Shown piece after piece: positions 14,403 through 46,080 of a DNA stretch of 64,000 bases. The stretch comes from Octopus sinensis. Taxonomy: Eukaryota. The stretch lies in contig NC_043021.1 in assembly GCF_006345805.1 (NCBI RefSeq), forward strand, positions 24,118,001 through 24,182,000, read 5' to 3'. Position 1 is the first letter of the stretch, and every line of letters begins with the position of its first letter. The notes below the pieces were generated by a model. The model was not told the DNA's origin. It did not search any database and worked only from the letters and a program-made list of their open reading frames with translations. The position numbers and the translations under genes are program-made.

Positions 14403-14437
14403 GTTTCCGACGAAGAGCTCCGCTCGAAACGTCATAC
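14403..14437 (+). ncRNA. Minimal type-I hammerhead (U4>C) in a pLTR-like tail (~14300-14530)
   Basis: gttt CCGACGA a gagc-tcc-gctc GAAA cg TC atac; homologous to 35510-35544. Confidence 0.7.
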
Positions 14438-14528
14438 CCTCCTTCTTCCATTTTCCTGAGCGCCTAATAATATTAATACTGTAATTATTCCACGTGTTGT
14501 TGTTTTTTCTGTTTTCCCGTTTGGATTA

Positions 14529-14563
<35 letters not shown>

Positions 14564-14780
14564 CAATAATAAATCTCTAAGCGAGGTATAAACAGTAACT
14601 GCTCTGTAATATAAGCGGGATCAGCCATCTGAATGTGGCTAGGGACAGGGCGGGGTGGTGGGGGTGTTACTGATGCATTAGCCCAGGCGACTATAGACGT
14701 CACCAGAAGAGCCGACACCATCACGGTGTCCTTGCTAGCCTGTAAAGGGAGATCAGCCTCCCCGAAGATACGGATGCTAC

Positions 14781-14821
14781 ACACGGACCGGTTTCGAGGT
14801 GGTCGCCTCTCGTCAGCGCAT
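14781..14821 (-). ncRNA. Type-I hammerhead, canonical core
   Basis: Minus strand: atgcg CTGACGA gagg-cgacca-cctc GAAA ccgg TC cgtgt. Confidence 0.88.
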
Positions 14822-15137
14822 GGCAAGCACCGTTCTTCGTTGAGGGACTTCCTCTACAGGCTAGAAATATATAGATTTTCACAGTAAACACAGTCACTGC
14901 GTCGAAAATCTGTTCGATAACAATATAAATCTCTAAGCGAGGTATAAACAGTAACTGCTCTGTAATATAAGCGGGACCAGCCATCTGAATGTGGCTAGGG
15001 ACAGGGCGGGGTGGTGGGGGTGTTACTGATGCATTTAGCCCCAGGCGACTATAGACGTACCAGAAGAGCCGACACCATCACGGTGTCCTTGCTAGCCTGT
15101 AAAGGGAGATCAGCCTCCCCGAAGATACGGATGCTAC

Positions 15138-15178
15138 ACACGGACCGGTTTCGAGGTGGTCGCCTCTCGTCAGCGCAT
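15138..15178 (-). ncRNA. Type-I hammerhead, identical second copy
   Basis: Same sequence as 14781-14821, 357 nt away. Confidence 0.88.
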
Positions 15179-15399
15179 GGCAAGCACCGTTAGCATCCGT
15201 ATCTTCGGGGAGGCTGATCTCCCTTACAGGCTAGCAAGGACACCGTGATGGTGTCGGCTCTTCTGGTGACGTCTATAGTCGCCTGGGGCTAAATGCATCA
15301 GTAACACCCCCACCACCCCGCCCTGTCCCTAGCCACATTCAGATGGCTGGTCCCGCTTATATTATATATATATATATTATATATATATATATAGATAAG

Positions 15400-16039: not shown

Positions 16040-16693
16040 TAATGTAGGATAACATTTTTTTTTCTTTTTCGAAAAAAAAAAGAAAAAAAATTTTATCAAT
16101 GGCCAGCATATTAAAAATACTTTTAAAGGATAAATTTATATAATTCATAAATAAGGGCAAACGAAAAGATTTCTAATGCCAAATATGCCGAAAAATTGGA
16201 CATATTGTCCATTAACCATATAATTTTTTCACAATATGCACGCTACTCGAAAAAAGGCCGACAGAAATTTCTAAAAAATTCCATTATTACCATATCGGAC
16301 CGATTTCAGGGTTAGCTTATAACAGCCCTCCCTTCGTCAGTGATACATGTGGCAAAAGAAATAAATGAGATACTTACTCATACCCATGGAAGAAGCAAAC
16401 ACTAATTCATGAGCACAACTAAGTACCCCAAATACATCCAAAATAGAAATATAAATTTAAGCGTTCACTTCCGGACTCTCCCACTCTGTGAGGGCCTCAG
16501 TTCAAATCGCACGTGTCTCGAATGGGCTGGAGTATTTCTATTTTGGATTTATTTGGGGTACTTAATTGTGCTCATGAATTAGTGTTTGCTTCTTCCATGG
16601 GTATGAGTAAGTATCTCATTTATTTTTTTACTACATTTATCACTGACGAAGGGAGGGCTCTTATGAGCTAACCCTGAAATCGGTCCGATATGG
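16040..16693. mobile_element. PLE-type fold-back remnant with two inverted hammerheads
   Basis: Arms 16290-16451 and 16533-16693; HHR tatca CTGACGA aggg..ccct GAAA tcgg TC cgata at 16638-16690 (+) and 16293-16345 (-). Confidence 0.8.
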
Positions 16694-17383
16694 CCACGTG
16701 AATAACCGGGTGGTGGACTAGCGTTGCTTGGAATGTGAATGGAATAGTGTAGTAGTGAGGTAGGCATAGAGAATGGGATTGGGTTACTGCAAGTTGTTTG
16801 TTAGAGATGCTAAGGTGAGTTAAAGCTCATAAATGTATATAATGTTTTTTGTGGGTGTTAAGTATTGTTGTATATGTCGAGTTTAGTGAGTATGTATAGG
16901 CGATATGTGAGGGAGTATATGTATCTTTTGTGTGTGAGTGTTTTTGCGTTGAGTGTGGTTTTTTGGGGGTGTGAATGTGTATATGGGTTTGTTATTTAGG
17001 TTTTGGGATGTATGTGTTATTTGTCTGTGTGGGGAGGGAGTGGGTTTTGGTGTATATTGAGGTTTATAAGTTAGTATAGGTATGTGTATAAGTCGTGAGT
17101 CTGTGGTTTACGTGTGTGTATTTGTGTGTGAATGTTTAGGTTAGGGGGGGTTACTTTATAGGTTTGTTATAGAGTTTAGCAAAGGGAGATTTTATCGTTA
17201 TATGTTTTTAAGAGTTTTGTTTTATCATGGTTTTTTTAGGAATTTTTGGGTAATTAGTCTATATTTTGATATGGATTATATATAGGTTATATATGGATTA
17301 TATACTTATATTTTTTCATTTATACTTTAATTATTTAAAAGTATTATTTTTATATTTTAAAATTTTGATTTTTTAGATTGGAA

Positions 17384-17430
17384 GTCCACCTGAAGATTGT
17401 CGATCAAGACAAGAAACGATTGTAGTGGCG
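17384..17430 (+). ncRNA. Minimal type-I hammerhead in the 5' pLTR
   Basis: ccac CTGAAGA ttgtc-gatcaa-gacaa GAAA cgattg TA gtgg. Confidence 0.88.
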
Positions 17431-17662
17431 GTTTTTTTGACTATTTATTAATTTTATGTATTGATTAAGTCTTTCCTTGTTTGTTTTGCAAAATAGTGGT
17501 TTTGTCTCAAATAATATTTTATAATATTTTACTATAAAATTGGATTTAATCCTAAATCTGATTTTTTCCCTGTAAATAAATTGGATATATTCCCTAATAT
17601 TTATTATTTATATAATATTGATAATTTTGTATATTGAGTGTAATACCTCAATTTCGCAAATT

Positions 17663-20166
17663 ATGGATTTTACAGGTAAGATAGAACCGCTGTTTTGGGA
17701 TTCATCTTTGAAAGATATTCCTATTCCTTCTAGAAAGGAATTTATCTTGAAACTTGTTAATAATGTTAAAGATTTTATTTCTAGAATTAAATGGAAAGCT
17801 TTTTACTATAATTTTTATTTATTTAATGATATTGATAGTAGGAATGATAATTATACCTCTAAATTTAAATCTAGAAAGGAACCTCCATTAATAAAGAATT
17901 ACAATTACTTGAAGATAGTATATGGAAGGTGGTAAAAATATTGAATTCCATAAATACCCAAATAGAAATAATGAATATTTAAGGAATTTAGCAATTAAAA
18001 TTAAAGATATGAGAATATGGATAGTATTATAGTACAATCTGATAAAACAAGGAACTTATATAAATTAGATGTTAAATTATATGATAAACTATTAGGGAAA
18101 GAAATAATTAAAAAATATAAAATTGTTCCAGATGATATTCTTTATAATATTAATAAGGCCTCTAAAGTAGTAATGTTAAAATATGAGTTGGATAATAAAA
18201 CTGAACCTTATGTACCTTTGCACCCCAGAATTACTCTTAAAGACCATAAAGATAATTTTTATTCAGACCCTAAAGTTAGATTAATTTGCCCATGTAAATC
18301 GGACCTAGGTAAATTAAGTAAATTTATTTTAGATAAATATATTGATAAGTTAAATAAACTTAATTATTTAAAATTATGGTTTAGTAATAATAATACATTG
18401 AAATGGTTTAATAATATTAAAGATAAAAATCGTTATAAATTTATTCAAATAGATATAGATAATTATTATTCTTCTATTAATGAAATTGTGTTTAATAAAG
18501 CGCTTATTTTCGCAATGAATAAAGTGGGCATGTCACGGGAAGAAGTTAATGTAATTAAATTGGCTAGGAAATCGCTAATTAAATATAAAAATAAATTATG
18601 GGCTAGGAATGATACTAGAGATTGTTTTGATATACCTATGGGAGCACCAGATTCTGCACAGGCTACTGATTTAGTAGGTATTTTTCTTTTATCTGAACTC
18701 CAATTAGAAAATCTTAAGATAGAGGGTGGTTTATATAGAGACGATCTTCTACTAGTTACAAAGAATTGTACTAATAGGAATCTAGAAGTATATAAGAAAA
18801 AACTATATAGTTTCTTTAAAAGATATGGTTACGTATTACTATATATAAGGAGAATTATAATGTTAATTATTTAGATGTTAATTTTAATCTTATTACAGGT
18901 AAACACAACCATATCATAAACTTAATGAGAACCTTAGATATAAAATGTTAATAGTAATCACCCATTTTCTATTAAAAAATCGTTGATTAATAATATAAGT
19001 AAACGTATTTCATTACTCTCTTATGATATAGAGATTTTTAATAACATGCTAATTATTATAATGAGGCCCTTAGAGGGGCAGGTTATAATAAGAATATTAA
19101 ATTTTATAATATTAGCGATAATGATTTAAATGATAATTTTCGAGATACTTCTAATAATAATTATAATTTTGTTACGTTTAGTGGTAAAAATAATAGATAT
19201 TATAAAAAAAATAATAAAAATGATAAAATATAAATAAGAAATAATAATAATAATAATAAATATAATAATAATAATATAAATAAGAATAATATAAATAAAA
19301 ATAAATTTAATAATTATTATAATAATTATATTGATAAATTTAATAATATTAATAATTCCTTAAATGCTGTACATAGATATAATTCTGATAATAATTTTAA
19401 TAAATAAAGAATTATAAATATATTTATAATAATGATAATAATAATAAGGTTAAGAATAAAATTTGGTTAATAGTTCCTTATGGAGATCAAGTTAAAACGA
19501 ATATTATTAAAGAGATTTTAGATGTTATAGAACTATTTATTAGAGATAATCGTAAATATAGAAACATTTTCTCTTTTAATAATTTTGGAGTTGGTTACTC
19601 TACCACTAATAATGTTGGTAACATTATTCTTCATTTAATAAATATAAACTGAATAATTTTTATAAAAGAAATTATTTGATAATAATATTAATAATGATAA
19701 GACTTATATTAATTGTACATGTAGAGATAAATCTAATTGTATATTAAATAATAATTGTGATATTAACGATGTAGTGTATAAATGTATAGTTACATTACAT
19801 GATAATAACTTTAAGAATAATAATTACACAAAAGCGGTTTATATAGGTTCTACTTCCTCAAAAATAAAACTAAGAATTGCACAACATATGAATTCTTTTA
19901 AAAATAAAAACTTAATCAACTCAACCGGACTTAGTAAGTATATTTGGAGTCTTAAATCACTAAATATTAATTATAGTTTAATATGGGAAATAATTTGTAA
20001 AACTAAATCATATAATATAGGAGCTAATTGTTGTTATTTATGCTCTAATGAGTTTAAAGAAATTTTATTTTATAAGTATGATAATTTACTTAATACTGGG
20101 GAGGAGCGCAAAATAAAATGTAGACACAAGTTACTTTACTTATATAATAAGTTTCATGATAAATAG
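17663..20166 (+). pseudogene. PLE polyprotein: reverse transcriptase, Asn-rich linker, Cys cluster, GIY-YIG endonuclease (frameshifted in this assembly)
   Basis: SLKDIPIP N-terminus; QSDKTRN; DIDNYY; FDIPMGAPDS; GLYRDDLL; CTCRDKSNC..C..VVY..VYIGST..KLRIAQH..LLN..CRH. Confidence 0.9.
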
Positions 20167-23104
20167 CAATAATAGTTCCCTTTTAGTTATTTTAGTTTAG
20201 TTTAAATTAGTTTAGATGATATATTTTTGGTTATGTTGTCTAGGATTTAATTATAGTTAGTCTTTATTGATATTTCTTTGTTTTAATTAGTTCATTTTTA
20301 ATGTATATTAATTTAGCAGTTTATGGTACGTTAAAACTTTAATAATTTATATTAGATTTTTTTATTTTTTTATTTTTATTTTTATTTATTTTATTTTATT
20401 ATGTATTTTTATTTTGCATTTGTTATATGTATTTTGAGGATATATTTATATGTTTTTGGGTGTTATTTAGTGGTGTTTTTATTGAGTTTTGTATGTATGT
20501 GTGAATGTTTAAGATCCCTTGTGTTTTTGTTTTTTATTTGTATGTTGAATTGACAGATTTTATTTGGGTATTGTCTTTTATAATAAAGTACACACCCATA
20601 ACAATTATAAGTGCCCACTTCATTCGTTGTACTTGGGTTTGCATGTGAGCCTCAGCATATGCACCTAACGGCCACTCCAGCCCCACATGGATAAATAAAC
20701 ACATACATCCCCTAAAAATAAAAAAAAAAAAAAAAAAAAAAAAATGGGAGTAATCCCATTCACACCAATTATATGTATACAATTATACACACTTGAATAA
20801 TACATACTAGCCCTAATATACAGAACATACTAATAATCACCAACTAACCACCATCACAAATGAAACCCACACCCATACAATGACAAAACTCCCCCATACC
20901 CTATTTACACCTACATAGTAATCCCAATATATTCTTCCATACATGGACGCAAGTGCGTGAAGCACATGACATAATTAGTACGTACAACCCCTAATACACA
21001 CTAATATATACGTATCAAGCTCGACCTCCACAGTGATAAGTTTACACACAATCACACCCAGATGGGTGAATTGCACAACCAGTGAATGCTCACACATACG
21101 GGCGCGATTACATTGTTGCATATATCGAGCCAAAATAGTATGCATATGTACATGTGAGGGGTACACGTAAATGAAGTGAGCGTGTACCCCTGTTTTATAC
21201 CCGTGCGTGAATATACACATGGAGACTACCACACAGGTACAAATGTGTTTAGAAATGGGAGCCCCATCACTACACTTAATGTATACTCTCACCCATCCGC
21301 ACGGATGTGTAAGTGTATCTCCGGTGTATATGTTGAGGCTTATATGTAGAGTTGTTGAAGGGAACGTCGTTGAAATTGTGAATGAATGGGTAGAGTTGGG
21401 AATTGTAACCGGGTGGTGGACTAGTGTTGCTTGGAATTGTGAATGGATTAGGGTGGTAATGAGGTAGGCATTGAGTATGGGTTACTGTAAGTTGTTTGTT
21501 AGAGTTGCTAGGGTGAGCTAAAGCTCATAAATGTATATAATTGATTTTTCATGATAGTTTTTAAAGAATCCATTCATAATAAAAATTTTTTTTAAGTAGC
21601 GTTGGTTTGCTACGTGGAAATAGTTTTTAGTTCCATTTATTATATTTCTCCATTCATACTATGAATGACGTTTACTTTTTATGGCGCGTATTCTTTTTTT
21701 ACATTAGTTATTTCCATGGTAACGTAATTTTGTTTGGTTTTTTAACGGCTAAGAATCTAATTTCACTTCATAATTTGTAACTGAATTGTAAGTATGTATT
21801 TGATTTATCCTTATGTCATAATGTTATTTTTGATATTCTGGTTAATTACGATGTATTTATTGTTGTTTTCATAAGAGTGTTATGTATATGAGATTGGTTA
21901 TGAGTTTTTAATTGTATAATTAATTTATTTATCTGTATGAGTGTGTGGTGTAAATATTGTTGTATATATCGAGTTTTAGTGAGTATGTATATGCGTATAT
22001 GTGAGGGAGCATATGTATCTGTTGTGTGTGTGTGTTTTTGCGTTGTGTGTGTTTTGTGTGTGAATGTGTATTTGGGTTTGTTATTTAGGATTTGGGATGT
22101 ATGTGTTTTTTGTCTGTGTGGAGAGGGAGTGGTTTTTTGGTGTTATATTGAGGTTTATAAGTTAGTATAGGTTTGTGTATAAGTCTTGGGTCTGTGGTTT
22201 ACGTGTGGGTTTTTTGTGTGTGAATGTTTAGGTTAGGGGGATTGCTATATAAGTTTGTTATAGGGTTTAGCAAAGGGAGATTTTATCGTTATATGCTTTT
22301 ATGAGTTTTGGTTTATCATGGTTTTTTTTTTAGGTAATTCGTGGTATTTTGTCTATTTTAGGTGTTGGTTATTTTTTTACATTGTTTCATTCATAATTTT
22401 TGAGTGGTGTTCGTTTTGCCACGTGAATAACCGGGTGGTGGACTAGCGTTGCTTGGAATGTGAATGGAATAGTGTAGTAGTGAGGTAGGCATAGAGAATG
22501 GGATTGGGTTACTGCAAGTTGTTTGTTAGAGATGCTAAGGTGAGTTAAAGCTCATAAATGTATATAATGTTTTTTGTGGGTGTGTAAGTATTGTTTATAT
22601 GTCGAGTTTAGTGAGTATGTATAGGCGTATATGTGAGGGAGTATATGTATCTTTTGTGTGTGAGTGTTTGCGTGTGAGTGTGTGTTTGTGTGTGAATGTG
22701 TATATGGGTTTGTTATTTAGGTTTTGGGATGTATGTGTTAATTTGTCTGTGTGGGGAGGGAGTGGGTTTTGGTGTATATTGAGGTTTATAAGTTAGTATA
22801 GGTATGTGTATAAGTCGTGAGTCTGTGGTTTACGTGTGTGTATTTGTGTGTGAATGTTTAGGTTAGGGGGTTTACTTTATAGGTTTGTTATAGAGTTTAG
22901 CAAAGGGAGATTTTATCGTTATATGTTTTTAAGAGTTTTGTTTTATCATGGTTTTTTTAGGGAATTTGTGGTAATTAGTCTATATTTTGATATGGATTAT
23001 ATATAGGTTATATATGGATTATATACTTATATTTTTTCATTTATACTTTAATTATTTAAAAGTATTATTTTTATATTTTAAAATTTTGATTTTTTAGATT
23101 GGAA

Positions 23105-23151
23105 GTCCACCTGAAGATTGTCGATCAAGACAAGAAACGATTGTAGTGGCG
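23105..23151 (+). ncRNA. Minimal type-I hammerhead in the 3' pLTR
   Basis: Identical to 17384-17430. Confidence 0.88.
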
Positions 23152-23322
23152 GTTTTTTTGACTATTTATTAAATTTTATGTATTGATTAAGTCTTTCCTT
23201 GTTTGTTTTGCAAAATAGTGGTTTTGTCTCAAATAATATTTTATATATTTTACTATAAAATTGGATTTAATCCTAAATCTGATTTTTTTCCCTGTAAATT
23301 TGGATATATCCCTAATATTTAT

Positions 23323-26439: not shown

Positions 26440-29070
26440 GACCGTCTACCCACGCAGATCATAACATGATAGAACTGTCAATATATGGTCCAAAGTTAAT
26501 TAAAGAATCATTCAACACTGCTGGATCCCAAACGCTAGCCAGCCTGAACATCTACAAGGCTGACTGGAAGTCCATCAACAAAAGGATACTCCAGCAAAAC
26601 TGGCTTAAAAGTCTGTCCAAACAAGACACTGAGATGAAATTCAATGAATTTGCGAGCCATATGCATTAAGTTTGTCCCAGAGAAGAAAGCCACCACACAT
26701 AAGAACATTATTCTCCGAGATAGAAGAATCCTAATGAGACGGAAGATAAAGATCTCGAATCGCTTAAATAAGGAACCTAATGACAGCAAAAAGCCCTACC
26801 TCAAAATGGCGCTCTTAGAGACCGAGAATAAGATCAGACTCCCCCATGAAAAGGAAAGGGTAAACAGAGAAGCTAGGGCTGCGGAAAATATAAAAAGGAA
26901 CCCTAAAGCCTTCTACAAGTTCGCAAAAGAGCCTGCCTCAGTGCGATACAGAATAGGACCACTGTTTGGTGAAAAGGACATCACTGACTGCAAACCCCAA
27001 GAGGATAAATGAAGCACTCAATAAACAATTCCAAAGGGTTTTCACCTCCCCACAAGAAAGCATGAAAATAAGCAGAACTGATGAGTTCTGCAACACCTCT
27101 AACCTACAAGACAAAAAGGCGACCCTCAATTACATTGACATTACAGAACAGGATGTATTGTTGGTCATTGATGAGATAAACCCAAACTCTGCAACAGGCC
27201 CCGATGGACTCCCAGCAATTCTGTTAAAAACATGCAAGGAAACTCTTGCAAAACCACTGCAAATGCTTTTCTAGTGTTCCGTTGTATGCAGTACGTTTCC
27301 TCACACGTTAAAAGAAGGAATAACCTGCCCTGTCCACAAAGGAGGCAGCAGAGCAGATTCTATAAACTACAGGCCTATCTCTCCAACCTCACGTGTCAAC
27401 AAGATCATGGAACGCATTGTCAGAAAAAGACTGACCACTTTCCTGGAGGAAAATGACCTGCTTACAGACATGCAACATGGTTTCCGTCCTGGATGGCGCT
27501 GCCTAACACACCTACTAGAGCACTTCGACTGGGTACCAAAGCAACATCTCAACCATTCAAATGTGGATGTAATATATCTGAACTTTGCCAAGGCGCTTGA
27601 CAAAGTCGATCATGGGATAATATGTCACAAATTGCGTGACTTCGATATCGCTGGTAGACTGGGAGAGTGGCTGCATGATTTCCTGAAGGGCAGAAGTTAG
27701 GCTGTCACAGCAAATGGTGCTCTCTCTCTCTCTCTCTCTCTCTCTGAAGTGACACCAATCCTCAGTGGAGTCCCCCAGGAAACAATGCTGATACCACTAC
27801 TTTTGAGGGTTGCTCTGTTGGACATGTCCTCAGCCATAGAGTCAACCACATTCACCAGCTACGCCTATGATACAAAAGATGAAGGCGGCGAGCTGGCAGA
27901 AACGTTAGCTCGCCGGGCGAAATGCGTAGCCGTATTTCGTCTGTCGTTACGTTCCGAGTTCAAATTCCGCCGAGGTCGACTTTGCCTTTCATCCTTTCGG
28001 GGTCGATAAATTAAGTACCAGTTACGCACTGGGGTCGATGTAATCGACTTGATCCCTTTGTTGGTCCTTGTTTGTCCCCTCTATGTTTAGCCCCTTGTGG
28101 GTAGTAAAGAAATATATGATACAAAAGTATTGCAGGCAGTCAAGGAGACTACTGATAGCCTAAGACTGCAGAATGACCTGAACGTAATATATAAATGGGC
28201 TGATGAGAATAATATGCAGTTCAATGGCGTAAAATGTCAAGCACTCCGCTATCAACCCACAAACTACAGCTGAAGTACTCGGGACCAGCAGGCAATGTCA
28301 TCCCAGAGTTATAGTCGGTGTGTGACCTGGGAATCCACATGAACAACGATGCAAAATAATAGGTGTACATTGCTCAGATGGCAACACTATGCAGGCAGGT
28401 TGCAGGTTGGATCCTTAGATTCTTCAAGACTAGGAACAAAGACAATGCTTCTGCTTCGGATAACCTTTGTCCTCAGTCGACTGGAATACTGTTCCCAACT
28501 GTGGTCCCCACAGAGTGCAAAACTAATTGCGGAACTAGAAACGATCCAACGTCACTACACAAAGAAGATAGACTCAGTAAAACACATGGGCTACTGGGAG
28601 GGGTTGAAGGAACTGGAACTCTACTCCCTGGACAGGATACGTGAGAGATATGCAGTGCTATACATATGGAAAATACTGGAGGGTCAGGTTCCAAATTTCG
28701 GGATCGAAATCTACAACAATGTCCGAACTGGACGGCAGTGCACACTAGCAAAGGTCCTGTCTTCTCTATCAAGGATACGAACCCAATATTGTAATAGCTT
28801 CGGATTCAAGGGACCACAACTTTTTAATGCCCTATCACAGAACATCAGGGATCTGTGAAGAGTAGACATGGAAGTCTTCAAAAAACGTCTAGACCGTTTT
28901 TTTCTCTCTGCAATACCGGATGAACCCACATCGCGACAGGAAGCACAAAGAGTGGCAACGCCCAACTCGTAACTCGTTACTAGAAGCATTACTTGAAAAA
29001 TCCGCGGATGCAGTAAAGGCGGTGCACCAGCATGGTCTCGACCTCTGGCTGAAACCCATAAAACATAAAA
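26440..29070 (+). mobile_element. CR1/L2-type LINE, decayed RT region, interrupted by a SINE
   Basis: NPKAFYKF, ATGPDGLP, QHGFRPG, YLNFAKALDKVDH, SGVPQ, SRLEYCSQLWSP. Confidence 0.92.
27879..28114 (+). mobile_element. SINE family B inserted in the LINE RT
   Basis: 13-bp TSD tatgatacaaaag on both sides. Confidence 0.92.
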
Positions 29071-31739: not shown

Positions 31740-33000
31740 CAATAGTTCTATATTTACACACTGCCTTCAGCTTGGAGATGGTAATTTAGTTGAGGAGCAA
31801 GGCATTCGTTTGTCATAATTATCGCTGATTTGTTGTCGTTGCAGCATTGAAATCTTTGAGTTGATGTTTCTTTCTTGTTTCCTTCGAGCCGAGGCGGTTT
31901 TGCCTATAAGGATACACTGCAAAGCAGCATGTTGCAGCACTTCTTGCTTAATTACATTAATGAACTTCCAAACAGTGGGTGAGGACCATCAAATAATGTC
32001 TGCCTTCCCCTGTGCTATCCTTCTAGTCGACTTGCTGTTCTTGGGATCTCTTCTAGTGTTCGTTCTCTGAGATTCCATAAGTTAGTGGCGAAAAGTGGAC
32101 ATCTTCGAGGCTGACGCCGCGTCAATCTTCCGATATAGGTGTCTTCAAAGTATGACACTAAGGAATGGAAATGCACAGTAGCAATATTTACTTGAGATAT
32201 ATCTTCATCTGTGTTTTCAAACACATTTACAACATCCGCTTCCGGTAGAAACGTCATAGCACACAAACTTTTGCAAAAGAACCTCACCCGCTCATTTTCG
32301 ATGTAGGCGTCTCGTAGTCCAACTGCCTGAATTTCCCGCTATATAGCTTGCGAAAAGTGAAAAAAAAACAACAACTCTGTAATTGGCAGTTGGGGAAGGC
32401 CTGCCTGAGAGCTTCCCGTGCTGCTATTTCAAAGTCTGTCAGTATATACTGAGGTGAAAAGTTAGGACAATGTATAACTCTCCACAAGCGGCCATAAATG
32501 GCTTGAGTTTTGGACGGAAGAAGAACATAAAGATTAACGTTAAGCCGTGTTTTATGAAGTGCACTGTATATATCTGGTAAAACTAGCTCGGCGCTATTGT
32601 ACCGTCGCACATAATGGTTGTGGAATGTTCTAACTGTCTAAGCATGCTGCCAGTGACAAAAATAAAAATTCGGTCTGGTACATCAGGCGTATCTTCGTAC
32701 AAGAATCAGGACCTCATCAGTTCCGTGAGTTGTAGTTTGGTACAGTGCTGGAATCATCACGTCGACAGATGTTGCCCGTTCTGATGGAAACTCTTCTTTA
32801 ACTTGCCTCCGTTTCCTCTGGATTCTTGCCAACGCTTTTCATATCAGAACTCGAAACAATTCTTTGTTATGCCTAACAATTAATCGGTGAGAGGTAGTTG
32901 CGTGGCAACGGCTCCGGCTGCCATATTGTCCAAGGCTTTCTCAAATCTTTGTTTGGCAAGGTCTCATGCTTGGTTATGAGGATGACATTCTTTAATTTTA
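31740..33000 (-). pseudogene. Mutator-like (MULE) DDE transposase, decayed
   Basis: YVLLPSKT..Y, LTDFEIAAREAL..FP, C.FH, YFEDTYIG, PLF..LWN, PRT...LEG. Confidence 0.85.
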
Positions 33001-34520: not shown

Positions 34521-35509
34521 TTTCCTAAGTATAAAGGTCAAGGATATCATGTAGAGAACAGAAAGCAACGGAGATAGGCTATCACCCTGGAAAATCCCCC
34601 TTCTGATACCCAGGGTGTCCAAGCCTTTTCCGTAAGATGTCAGCCTTTTTGTTCCGTCGGTAATATATCATTCTCATAAAAAAATTTGTAAAGTTCTTCT
34701 GCAATTCCTCCTGATAGTAACTTTCACATTAACTGGAGGCAACAAATTGGTCTGTAATTGTCAGCAGTATTTCCCTTTGATGCATCCTTCAGACACAACC
34801 CCGTTCGTCTTTTTGTCAACCAGCCCGGGATTTCTTCTTCTCCATTAACCAATGTATTAAATTATTCTGCGATCAATTTATCCAAGATCCCTGAACACCA
34901 CCAGGTCCTGCTACTTTCTAATTGCTTATCTTTTTACTCATATTTCTGATACTGTCTTCTGTGAAGTGGATAACCTTTTGCGTAGGATAAGAAGCTGTTT
35001 TCTTTAGGCTGCAGAGCCATTCACCTGTAGTATTATGTTGTTCTTGCTTACTCCATATCTTTCCCCAGAAAAGTCGACTTTCATAAGCATCAGGGACTAA
35101 TCTTTCATGTTGTTTTATCATCAATAATCTCTTGGTAAAATCACTCTTTCTTTCCACGGATAACCCGAGTCAGTGTTTTGTTTGCTCCTTCTTTTGGGAA
35201 CTTCAGTTGTTAAAACGATACATTGTTATCTTTTGTGTACACGTCACAAAATGTTTTTGATCCCTATTGATCGGTTTTGAAAAGGAAAATTCTACATTGT
35301 ACTGTCCCCGCTTTGTTCGGTTCTTCGTGGCTTAATAAATATGCCTGTCTGTCAAATAATTCTACACACAGTCGCAATATTTGAAGAATTCGTTTTCTCT
35401 TGAAGTGGCAAAATAGAGAAATTTCTCTCAAAAAGTTTATGATGTTATGTGTACCGTTGGCGATTTTTTTTCCACCGTCTTCCCTTCTTTTGATATTTCC
35501 TTTTCCTAT

Positions 35510-35544
35510 GTTTCTGAGGAAGAGCTCCGCTCGAAACGTTAAAC
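35510..35544 (+). ncRNA. Minimal type-I hammerhead in a pLTR-like remnant (~35200-35637)
   Basis: gttt CTGAGGA a gagc-tcc-gctc GAAA cg TT aaac; palindromic stem III ACGT. Confidence 0.8.
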
Positions 35545-35648
35545 CCTCCTTCTTTCCTGAGCGTTCAATAATACTATATTTGTTCCACGTCCTCGCGTTG
35601 TTGTGTTTTCTCTTTGTGTTTTCATGTTTGAATTAACTATATATATAC

Positions 35649-35685
<37 letters not shown>

Positions 35686-44985: not shown

Positions 44986-45402
44986 GGATCTTTTCGGTTT
45001 GAACGGCAGTTTTTTCTAGCGGTGTCATATGAAATTGTCACCCATAATTATGACTCTAGTATCGATCTATTGCATTTCAATCTATTTTAGGGTCAGGGTT
45101 AGTTAGGGTTAGGTTTAGGGGTGGGGGGAAGGTATATTTTTTTTCTTCACAAATGTAAATAAACCCAATCTGTTTCTTAAACGAGGGACATATTCATACG
45201 GCACAGAATGGACGTCACTGATTGGTTGAAATTGCAGATATTGAAGAAAAAAACGACAAATATCTTACAAACTATAGAATTTTCTCGATAAAGCCAAGAG
45301 AAAAAGATGTTTTATAAACACATTCTACCAGTATACGAAGTTTAAAATTTTTTAGTTACCTAGAAATTATGTTAAAAATTGCCGTTCAAACCGAAAAGAT
45401 CC
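44986..45402 (-). mobile_element. MITE copy 4
   Basis: Both TIRs present; no TSD; abuts an RTE fragment. Confidence 0.93.
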
Positions 45403-46080
45403 GTGAGAAATTTGGCCTGTACTTCAATGTCAAGAAAACGAAGATCATGTCAACAGCAACCACAGCAAACATCAGCATCAAGATCGATAATGAAGAGATC
45501 GAAGTGGTTGATGATTTCATCTTGCTTTGCTCCAAAATATATCGAGATGGTAACTGCACTCCAGAAATAAGGCGGCGGATAGTGCTGGACAGGGTCTGGA
45601 ACAGTAGAGACATCAGACTTGCTACCAAATGCAGATTGGTGAATGCAATCGTCTTCCCAATAGTAACATATGGATGCAAGACCTGGACACTAAAGAAAGC
45701 TGACCAGAAGAGAATTAATGCATTCGAGCTTTGGTGTTGGGGAAGACTTTTACGGATTCCATGGACAGTGAGGCTCACCAATGGAGAAGTTCTTAACCAT
45801 ATCAAGCCGAAACTGTCGCTAGAAGCTAGGATCACCAAGCATAGGCGGACATATTTTGGTCATATTATGCGGAGAAAATCCCTGAAGAAGGACATCATGC
45901 TCGGAATGGTCAGTAGCAAGAGAGGAAGAGGCCGACCACGAACCTGCTGGCTTGACACCATCAAGAGTGACACGGGAATGGCCATAGCCAATCTGAAAGA
46001 AGCGACCCAGGGTAGAACTGGCTGGAGAACATTGATCCATCGAGTAACCGAGAGTCGACTTCGACTGAACGGATAGATAG
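45403..46080 (+). mobile_element. RTE LINE 3' end (RT C-terminus)
   Basis: GLYFNVKKTKIM, YGCKTWTL..RINAFELWCW, YFGHIMR, KRGRGRP; GATA tail. Confidence 0.92.

Follow-up and report, generated by a model that had tools for sequence, protein, structure and literature searches.

Metazoan non-LTR retrozymes consist of non-coding units of 150-450 bp that are arranged head to tail, with one type I hammerhead ribozyme per unit (Cervera & de la Pena 2020, PMC7229834; this and the other publications below are quoted from excerpts of their text). They are multi-copy, share their genomes with PLEs and are predicted to form stable, self-paired circles; members are known from coral, mussel (~350-390 bp) and axolotl (330/350 bp). 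According to the same source, ribozymes with a weak helix III cleave as dimers, and HHR_Amex1 of the axolotl cleaves well as a dimer but poorly as a monomer. A 2020 review attributes a stable helix III to most invertebrate retrozyme ribozymes and states that retrozyme repeats show no motif pointing to a partner enzyme (PMC7761336). Li, Clavereau & Pollet derive non-LTR retrozymes from PLEs on the basis of co-occurrence and pLTR homology in vertebrates, report mean family lengths of ~300-350 bp in several groups, and discuss local tandem amplification (bioRxiv 10.64898/2026.07.22.740005); in the excerpts of this preprint no mollusc is sampled, the main text makes no use of tails or inverted copies, and the mechanism of retrozyme mobilisation is called unresolved. 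PLE insertions carry a signature of their own, namely a partial tandem, an inverted 5'-truncated copy, a 30-40 bp tail and a bias for (TA)n targets, and non-autonomous head-to-tail Chlamys elements have also been described (Craig et al. 2021, PMC8557442). In an anole PLE, the protein cleaves the two strands of AT-rich target DNA and extends each of them, and two internal cDNA start sites downstream of the hammerhead bound the tail; ribozyme cleavage is dispensable, and mainly uncut RNA is copied (Frangieh et al. 2024, PMC11167929). The insertion described here bears on two questions, namely by which enzyme animal retrozymes are mobilised and whether circles serve as its template.

The stretch of DNA analysed (64,000 nucleotides, hereafter the window) contains at 14563-15364 one insertion of a multi-copy, non-coding repeat, likely a non-autonomous PLE or animal non-LTR retrozyme that was likely copied into (TA)n by PLE enzymes in trans. 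Positions 14563-15191 hold a 357-bp non-coding unit in minus orientation, repeated head to tail 1.76 times (357 + 272 bp). The first copy is complete (14563-14919, with the element 3' end at 14563), and the second is a partial unit of 272 bp (14920-15191) that is 5'-truncated 18 nt upstream of its hammerhead core; the two are 98.2% identical over 277 aligned columns. An 85-bp spacer (14835-14919, minus), which is present once at the locus and contains no ORF, forms the direct link between the hammerhead side of one unit and the tail of the following one. Beyond the tandem lies a 174-bp inverted, 5'-truncated copy on the plus strand (15191-15364), which is the reverse complement of 14963-15136 and ends 6 nt short of the 5' end of the predicted monomer. 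The alignments show that this arm is missing a 44-bp 'tail', which is located at the element 3' end (14563-14606, minus). The three copies show six differences, five of them 1-nt indels; within the segment common to all three, every difference affects a single copy only. The tandem and its arm are flanked by (TA)n tracts on both sides: a left (TA)15 target tract (14533-14562), whose last 3 nt (ATA) are the same as in the unit, and a right tract (15358-15397), which overlaps the arm end by up to 7 nt. The left tract also closes, on the 3' side, an unrelated PLE-type end (14349-14555), and the elements are thus nested, as the retrozyme sits in the TA tract of that end.

A reading made from the sequence alone had described a GC-rich non-coding unit of 357 nt in tandem. 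The head-to-tail repeat is there, but it amounts to only 1.76 units, and TRF, which missed the sub-dimer array, lists no array with a 357-bp period. The non-coding description also holds, as the circularised unit has no ORF longer than 118 codons, a 122-aa frame across the unit has no Pfam match, and 14563-15364 contains no RT/GIY-YIG ORF. The G+C content of 50.4% is high only relative to the AT-rich window, and it lies at the upper limit of the range stated for metazoan retrozymes, below 50% (PMC7229834). On testable sequence features the element qualifies as a metazoan non-LTR retrozyme, while cleavage and circles, the functional core of the class, are predicted. Like the described members it has a non-coding head-to-tail unit of suitable length with one type I hammerhead, a stable self-paired predicted circle, multiple copies and PLEs in the same genome, and the proposed retrozyme-type unit is supported. 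It differs from them in its 1.76 units and in having an inverted arm and a tail; the word 'inverted', like any mention of octopus or cephalopods, is absent from the main text of PMC7229834 as excerpted. A literature search, which had most subscription papers outside its reach, found no cephalopod retrozyme. The excerpted part of an Octopus vulgaris repeat paper (PMC13282606) contains no mention of a ribozyme, and four motifs of the unit are absent from its small supplement, a file without the repeat library.

The two type I hammerheads are located on the minus strand at 15137-15179 (upstream; core 15173-15143) and 14780-14822 (downstream; core 14816-14786, with the predicted cut between 14786 and 14785). 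They are identical, and their predicted cuts (C17 = 15143 and 14786) are 357 nt apart, so that a predicted 357-nt monomer lies between them (14786-15142, minus). Each contains a CUGACGA core, a 4-bp stem II closed by a 6-nt loop that runs C...A, GAAA, the palindrome ACCGGU, GUC and a 6-bp stem I. This pair, which the sequence-only reading had reported, is borne out by shuffled controls: a descriptor fitted to the fold matches twice in the window and never in 200 locally shuffled windows, and the exact pattern also matches twice, as compared to no match in 100 shuffles. Both matches trace to one duplication and are not independent events. Rfam reports no hammerhead family at the gathering score and none at E<=10, where all 17 matches are miRNA-type hairpins under their cut-offs that arise because of the inverted repeats; an exact scan for the hammerhead in metagenome contigs gave 0 matches.

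Beyond the 6-bp stem I, a U is present on the 3' strand, and U-G-C immediately precedes the stem on the 5' strand. In a comparison made by eye, the U, the C and the 3' A of loop II occupy the sites of the Schistosoma contact motif, which consists of U1, C8 and the loop-II 3' A (Dufour et al., PMC2632901), and the Sm-alpha hammerhead has the same arrangement of a 6-bp stem I followed by U, a C on the other strand and a C...A loop II. Minimal PLE-type hammerheads, in contrast, are said to lack the elements of the loop 1-loop 2 contact (PMC6155905, PMC2632901, PMC7761336). A long stem I and Schistosoma-type loop-contact bases set the ribozyme apart from a minimal PLE-type motif. The proposal of a minimal type I hammerhead is thereby narrowed, as the type I assignment and the palindromic, dimer-type stem III stand and the word minimal does not. 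Helix III is weak, with one pair closed by the palindromic tetraloop CCGG (ACCGGU). It thus resembles the single-pair helix III and palindromic tetraloop of HHR_Amex1, the axolotl/newt satellite hammerhead (PMC7229834), rather than the stable helix III of invertebrate retrozyme ribozymes (PMC7761336). By analogy, cleavage is predicted to occur in dimers through this weak, amphibian-like stem. The prior odds of activity are modest, as in vitro cleavage was seen in only 1 of 9 dimers of Xenopus retrozymes (bioRxiv 10.64898/2026.07.22.740005). The likeness to the Amex1 and Sm-alpha ribozymes does not extend to the unit, whose sequence is unrelated to theirs as far as compared (no Rfam match).

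To describe the fold of the unit, we used nearest-neighbour energies, which exclude tertiary contacts. Stem I extends into a long imperfect hairpin of ~50 bp (14735-14864, minus) that carries the hammerhead at its tip; this rod is more stable than all 200 of its shuffles (z -6.7). The predicted circular monomer has an energy of -123.7 kcal/mol (z -4.9, 0 of 100 shuffles). The lowest-energy fold leaves the ribozyme inactive, since it pairs CUG of the core to the palindrome, and the pairing probability of stem I is only 0.01. Relative to the free ensemble, a double hammerhead costs 8.2 kcal/mol, as compared to 16.3 kcal/mol for a single active ribozyme. In the predicted fold the spacer is paired with sequence across the cleavage site, and variants found in the family keep this pairing. 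All six variants listed in the rod are compatible with the active fold; one changes a G-U pair to A-U and breaks the inactive pairing, and another possibly replaces a U-A pair with C-G. Outside the rod, 12 variants fall at paired sites, and only 4 of them keep the predicted pair. The remaining 7 of the 25 variants fall at unpaired sites, and the set is unphased and mixed across subfamilies. All 5 transitions in the rod are self-compatible, which at a background rate of 0.56 would happen by chance with a probability of ~0.06 and is a hint only that family variants favour the active rod fold.

The sequence-only reading further held that this locus can release a 357-nt monomer or circle, a claim that the predicted folds leave without support as stated. 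We consider it unlikely that the locus itself actively supplies linear and circular RNA of 357 nt, even though it contains two intact, identical hammerheads at the spacing of one unit and retrozymes are thought to depend on read-through transcription (PMC7761336). Just 18 nt of sense sequence are left ahead of the upstream core, and the unit contains no Pol III A/B box pattern; any transcript that carries both ribozymes must therefore run through the arm. (A sigma-70 promoter scan, which is not meant for eukaryotes, gave chance-level output.) In such read-through RNA, the arm and the initial 174 nt of the monomer are predicted to form a 174-bp hairpin, a duplex of -381.5 kcal/mol; forming the double hammerhead in cis would cost +211 kcal/mol with the arm, as compared to +8 kcal/mol without it. 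The upstream ribozyme is confined to the 54-nt loop of this hairpin, where stem II forms with a probability of 0.09. Cleavage in trans by a second RNA is possible, yet the monomer would remain paired. The modelled folds therefore portray the locus as probably a poor source of free circles, as its read-through RNA would lock half of the monomer in duplex, and circles, if any, more likely come from other tandem copies.

The non-autonomous, PLE-mobilised reading that we favour draws on the geometry of the insertion, whereas the preprint that proposes the same PLE link for the same class in vertebrates draws on co-occurrence and pLTR homology (bioRxiv 10.64898/2026.07.22.740005). As in insertions of EN+ PLEs, a 5'-truncated partial tandem, an inverted 5'-truncated copy beside its 5' end, a one-sided tail and a (TA)n target are all present, and the suggestion that the ~174-bp inverted arm inside (TA)n is a PLE-style integration mark thus agrees with the published signature (PMC8557442). 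The hammerhead is also positioned upstream of two presumed internal start sites, as in the anole element (PMC11167929). Differences from EN+ PLEs are the period of 357 bp instead of 2.5-4 kb, the lack of an RT/GIY-YIG ORF, the tail of 44 bp as compared to the quoted 30-40 bp, and the loop-contact bases of the ribozyme. No significant match to the unit was found elsewhere in the window (best E 0.22), and a Hydra-like PLE located ~2 kb away (16.7-23.3 kb), which we considered as the partner, accordingly has no sequence support. The PLE consensus files of PMC8557442, in which line breaks may hide matches, contain none of six short motifs of the unit.

In the mechanism that we propose, source tandem copies elsewhere would be transcribed, and their paired hammerheads would cut as dimers via the ACCGGU palindrome, with the single-ribozyme monomer or circle being nearly inert. 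A PLE reverse transcriptase/GIY-YIG endonuclease acting in trans would nick each strand of (TA)n and begin cDNA synthesis at a pair of internal sites that lie ~44 nt apart and bound the tail. Each target strand would prime one of the two cDNAs, with starts 223 and 179 nt downstream of the cleavage site. The long cDNA (629 nt) would run across two cleavage sites, so that its template would be a circle or an uncut multimer, with template jumping as a third option; the short cDNA would comprise 174 nt. Both would stop in the stem I helix and join head to head, producing the tandem, the inverted arm and the tail. The observed ends lie on opposite strands of this same helix, at 15136 for the short cDNA and at 15191 for the long one, and the position of the short end, a single junction, may fit run-off at the cut or stalling in the stem alike. 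On read-through, the daughter copy would give a 174-bp double-stranded hairpin and not free circles. We tentatively consider a more specific scheme, possible though short of probable, in which a PLE mobilises a cephalopod retrozyme family in trans from an RNA circle and each insertion records the mechanism. Fixed twin starts 44 nt apart and a cDNA of more than unit length copied around the circle would then be expected, the second cDNA would run off at the ribozyme cut (the arm ends 6 nt short of it), and the dimer-only, amphibian-type hammerhead would cut multimers and spare circles. A circle template is not required, however, as the anole PLE mainly uses uncut RNA.

To place the insertion within a family, we turned to public sequence runs. 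Part of the stretch is present in 20 of the 24 runs listed, which come from 9 studies and carry 4 organism codes; none of the 20 is on record as RNA. Four of the 24 runs (X1, X2, X8 and X19) were compared with the monomer (14786-15142), yielding 990, 741, 80 and 10 matching contigs, respectively, which indirectly points to many genomic copies. X8 and X19 may be RNA, but as contigs they carry no information on expression, strand or circles. The contigs of X1, X2 and X8 cover all 30 bins of the monomer, and those of X19 leave 14786-14893 uncovered. The head-to-tail junction (14919/14920) is bridged by X8 record 29 with 92 + 46 letters (among the 32 of 1828 pieces listed) and, among the pieces listed for X2, by record 21 at the 31-letter minimum. 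The word depth of record 21 is 3,321, as compared to 35-53 in four low-depth X2 contigs listed; X1 record 2 extends only 6 letters past the junction and was left out as a bridge. A diverged sister form also joins the spacer to the tail (an X8 loose end behind 14899, among the loose ends listed). Among the same loose ends, 22 contigs of X1, 29 of X2 and 5 of X8 break off near 14925, the place that corresponds to the tail end, beyond which the flanks are AT-rich and agree poorly (agreement 0.57-0.62); a fixed end with varied AT-rich flanks is what many insertions sharing one start would produce. The start site at 14963 is absent among the 24 of 98 loose-end rows listed, and the contigs of the four runs showed no inversion joint and no circle junction that differs from tandem DNA.

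The segments 14925-14958 and 14978-15048 are also common to more abundant families in X1, X2 and X19, where they continue in other sequence, and are candidates for an RT-recognition region and for the autonomous partner. X19 record 13 (1005 nt) shares only 14978-15048 before continuing in unlike sequence, and 28 X2 contigs, among the loose ends listed, depart from the unit behind 14958; one sister family could be a longer, coding element. Such departures would fit a rival reading, in which the insertion is the 5'-truncated 3' end of an autonomous PLE whose terminal region has tandem 357-bp hammerhead repeats and there is no independent short element. PLEs with tandem hammerheads have been reported (PMC7229834, PMC7761336), and they would yield the same end structure. 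We nevertheless judge this explanation improbable, and that the unit is only the pLTR of such a PLE unlikely, because, among the contig pieces and loose ends listed, the short head-to-tail junction recurs in public runs, at high word depth and in the sister form; in addition, the spacer pairs across the cleavage site with pairing that family variants keep, and the ribozyme has the loop-contact bases that minimal PLE motifs reportedly lack. That the tandem and its arm arose as an artefact, through assembly or a long-read fold-back, or by rearrangement of a solo repeat at the DNA level, is very improbable. A fold-back read would mirror the flank, whereas the arm terminates within the unit and is followed by a different flank; the tandem junction occurs in other samples, and the geometry is that of the published PLE signature (PMC8557442). 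In favour of such an origin, the predominance of 1-nt indels and the letters at 14898, 14924 and 15058 that are missing from copy 2 or the spacer and present in the family would fit consensus errors, and the inversion joint was not recovered in the four runs.

The window appears to hold repeats only. It comes from an animal genome, plausibly that of a cephalopod in view of a repeat landscape reminiscent of octopus SINEs. In matches of the neighbouring RT, an Octopus sinensis protein (51% over 35% of the query) is the one named animal among 25, whereas no cephalopod name occurs among the 120 of 181 matches listed for an RTE-type ORF. A degenerate Hydra-clade PLE, a type known in Octopus, occupies 16693-23318 on the plus strand and ends in (TA)n. 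It contains an RT frame (18005-18874) with DKT-type and YRDD motifs, a CxCx5C linker and a GIY-YIG frame (19666-20166), and is bounded by terminal repeats (16693-17600 and 22418-23318) that are 97% identical and have a hammerhead-like motif at 17390 and 23111; older partial repeats lie at 21406-22359. Directly upstream, an inverted repeat (16290-16693) with arms of ~160 bp and an 81-bp spacer carries a different hammerhead in each arm, with a 4-bp stem III (16340, minus; 16643, plus), and the Hydra-like PLE begins ~3 nt past the predicted cut. Another PLE-type family is represented by two 74% identical 3' ends on the plus strand (14349-14555 and 35460-35659), each ending in (TA)n. Its hammerhead is minimal, with palindromic ACGT, and has an intact core at 35514 and one core change at 14408. 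A 152-bp tandem repeat (13883-14223; 2.2 copies, 90%) lies in (CA)-rich DNA just upstream of the first of these ends. Further fragments are distributed among 2794-5360, 26638-28858, 45318-46076, 60703-61551 and 32015-32637; they include an RTE-like RT fragment, whose matches carry PF00078, and others that we take to be CR1/L2-like and R4/Dong-like RT fragments and a transposase-like frame.

The class to which the element belongs is already known, and a PLE origin of retrozymes has already been proposed (bioRxiv 10.64898/2026.07.22.740005); the gain is therefore not another kind of element but a clean test case and, if the sequence is from a cephalopod, a new host group. This insertion is a useful mechanistic record in its own right. 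Should the circle-template scheme be true, it would constitute direct genomic evidence for the proposed PLE-driven, circle-templated retrozyme cycle. A young, multi-copy family that carries the full PLE signature makes the mobilisation of animal retrozymes testable from genome data alone.
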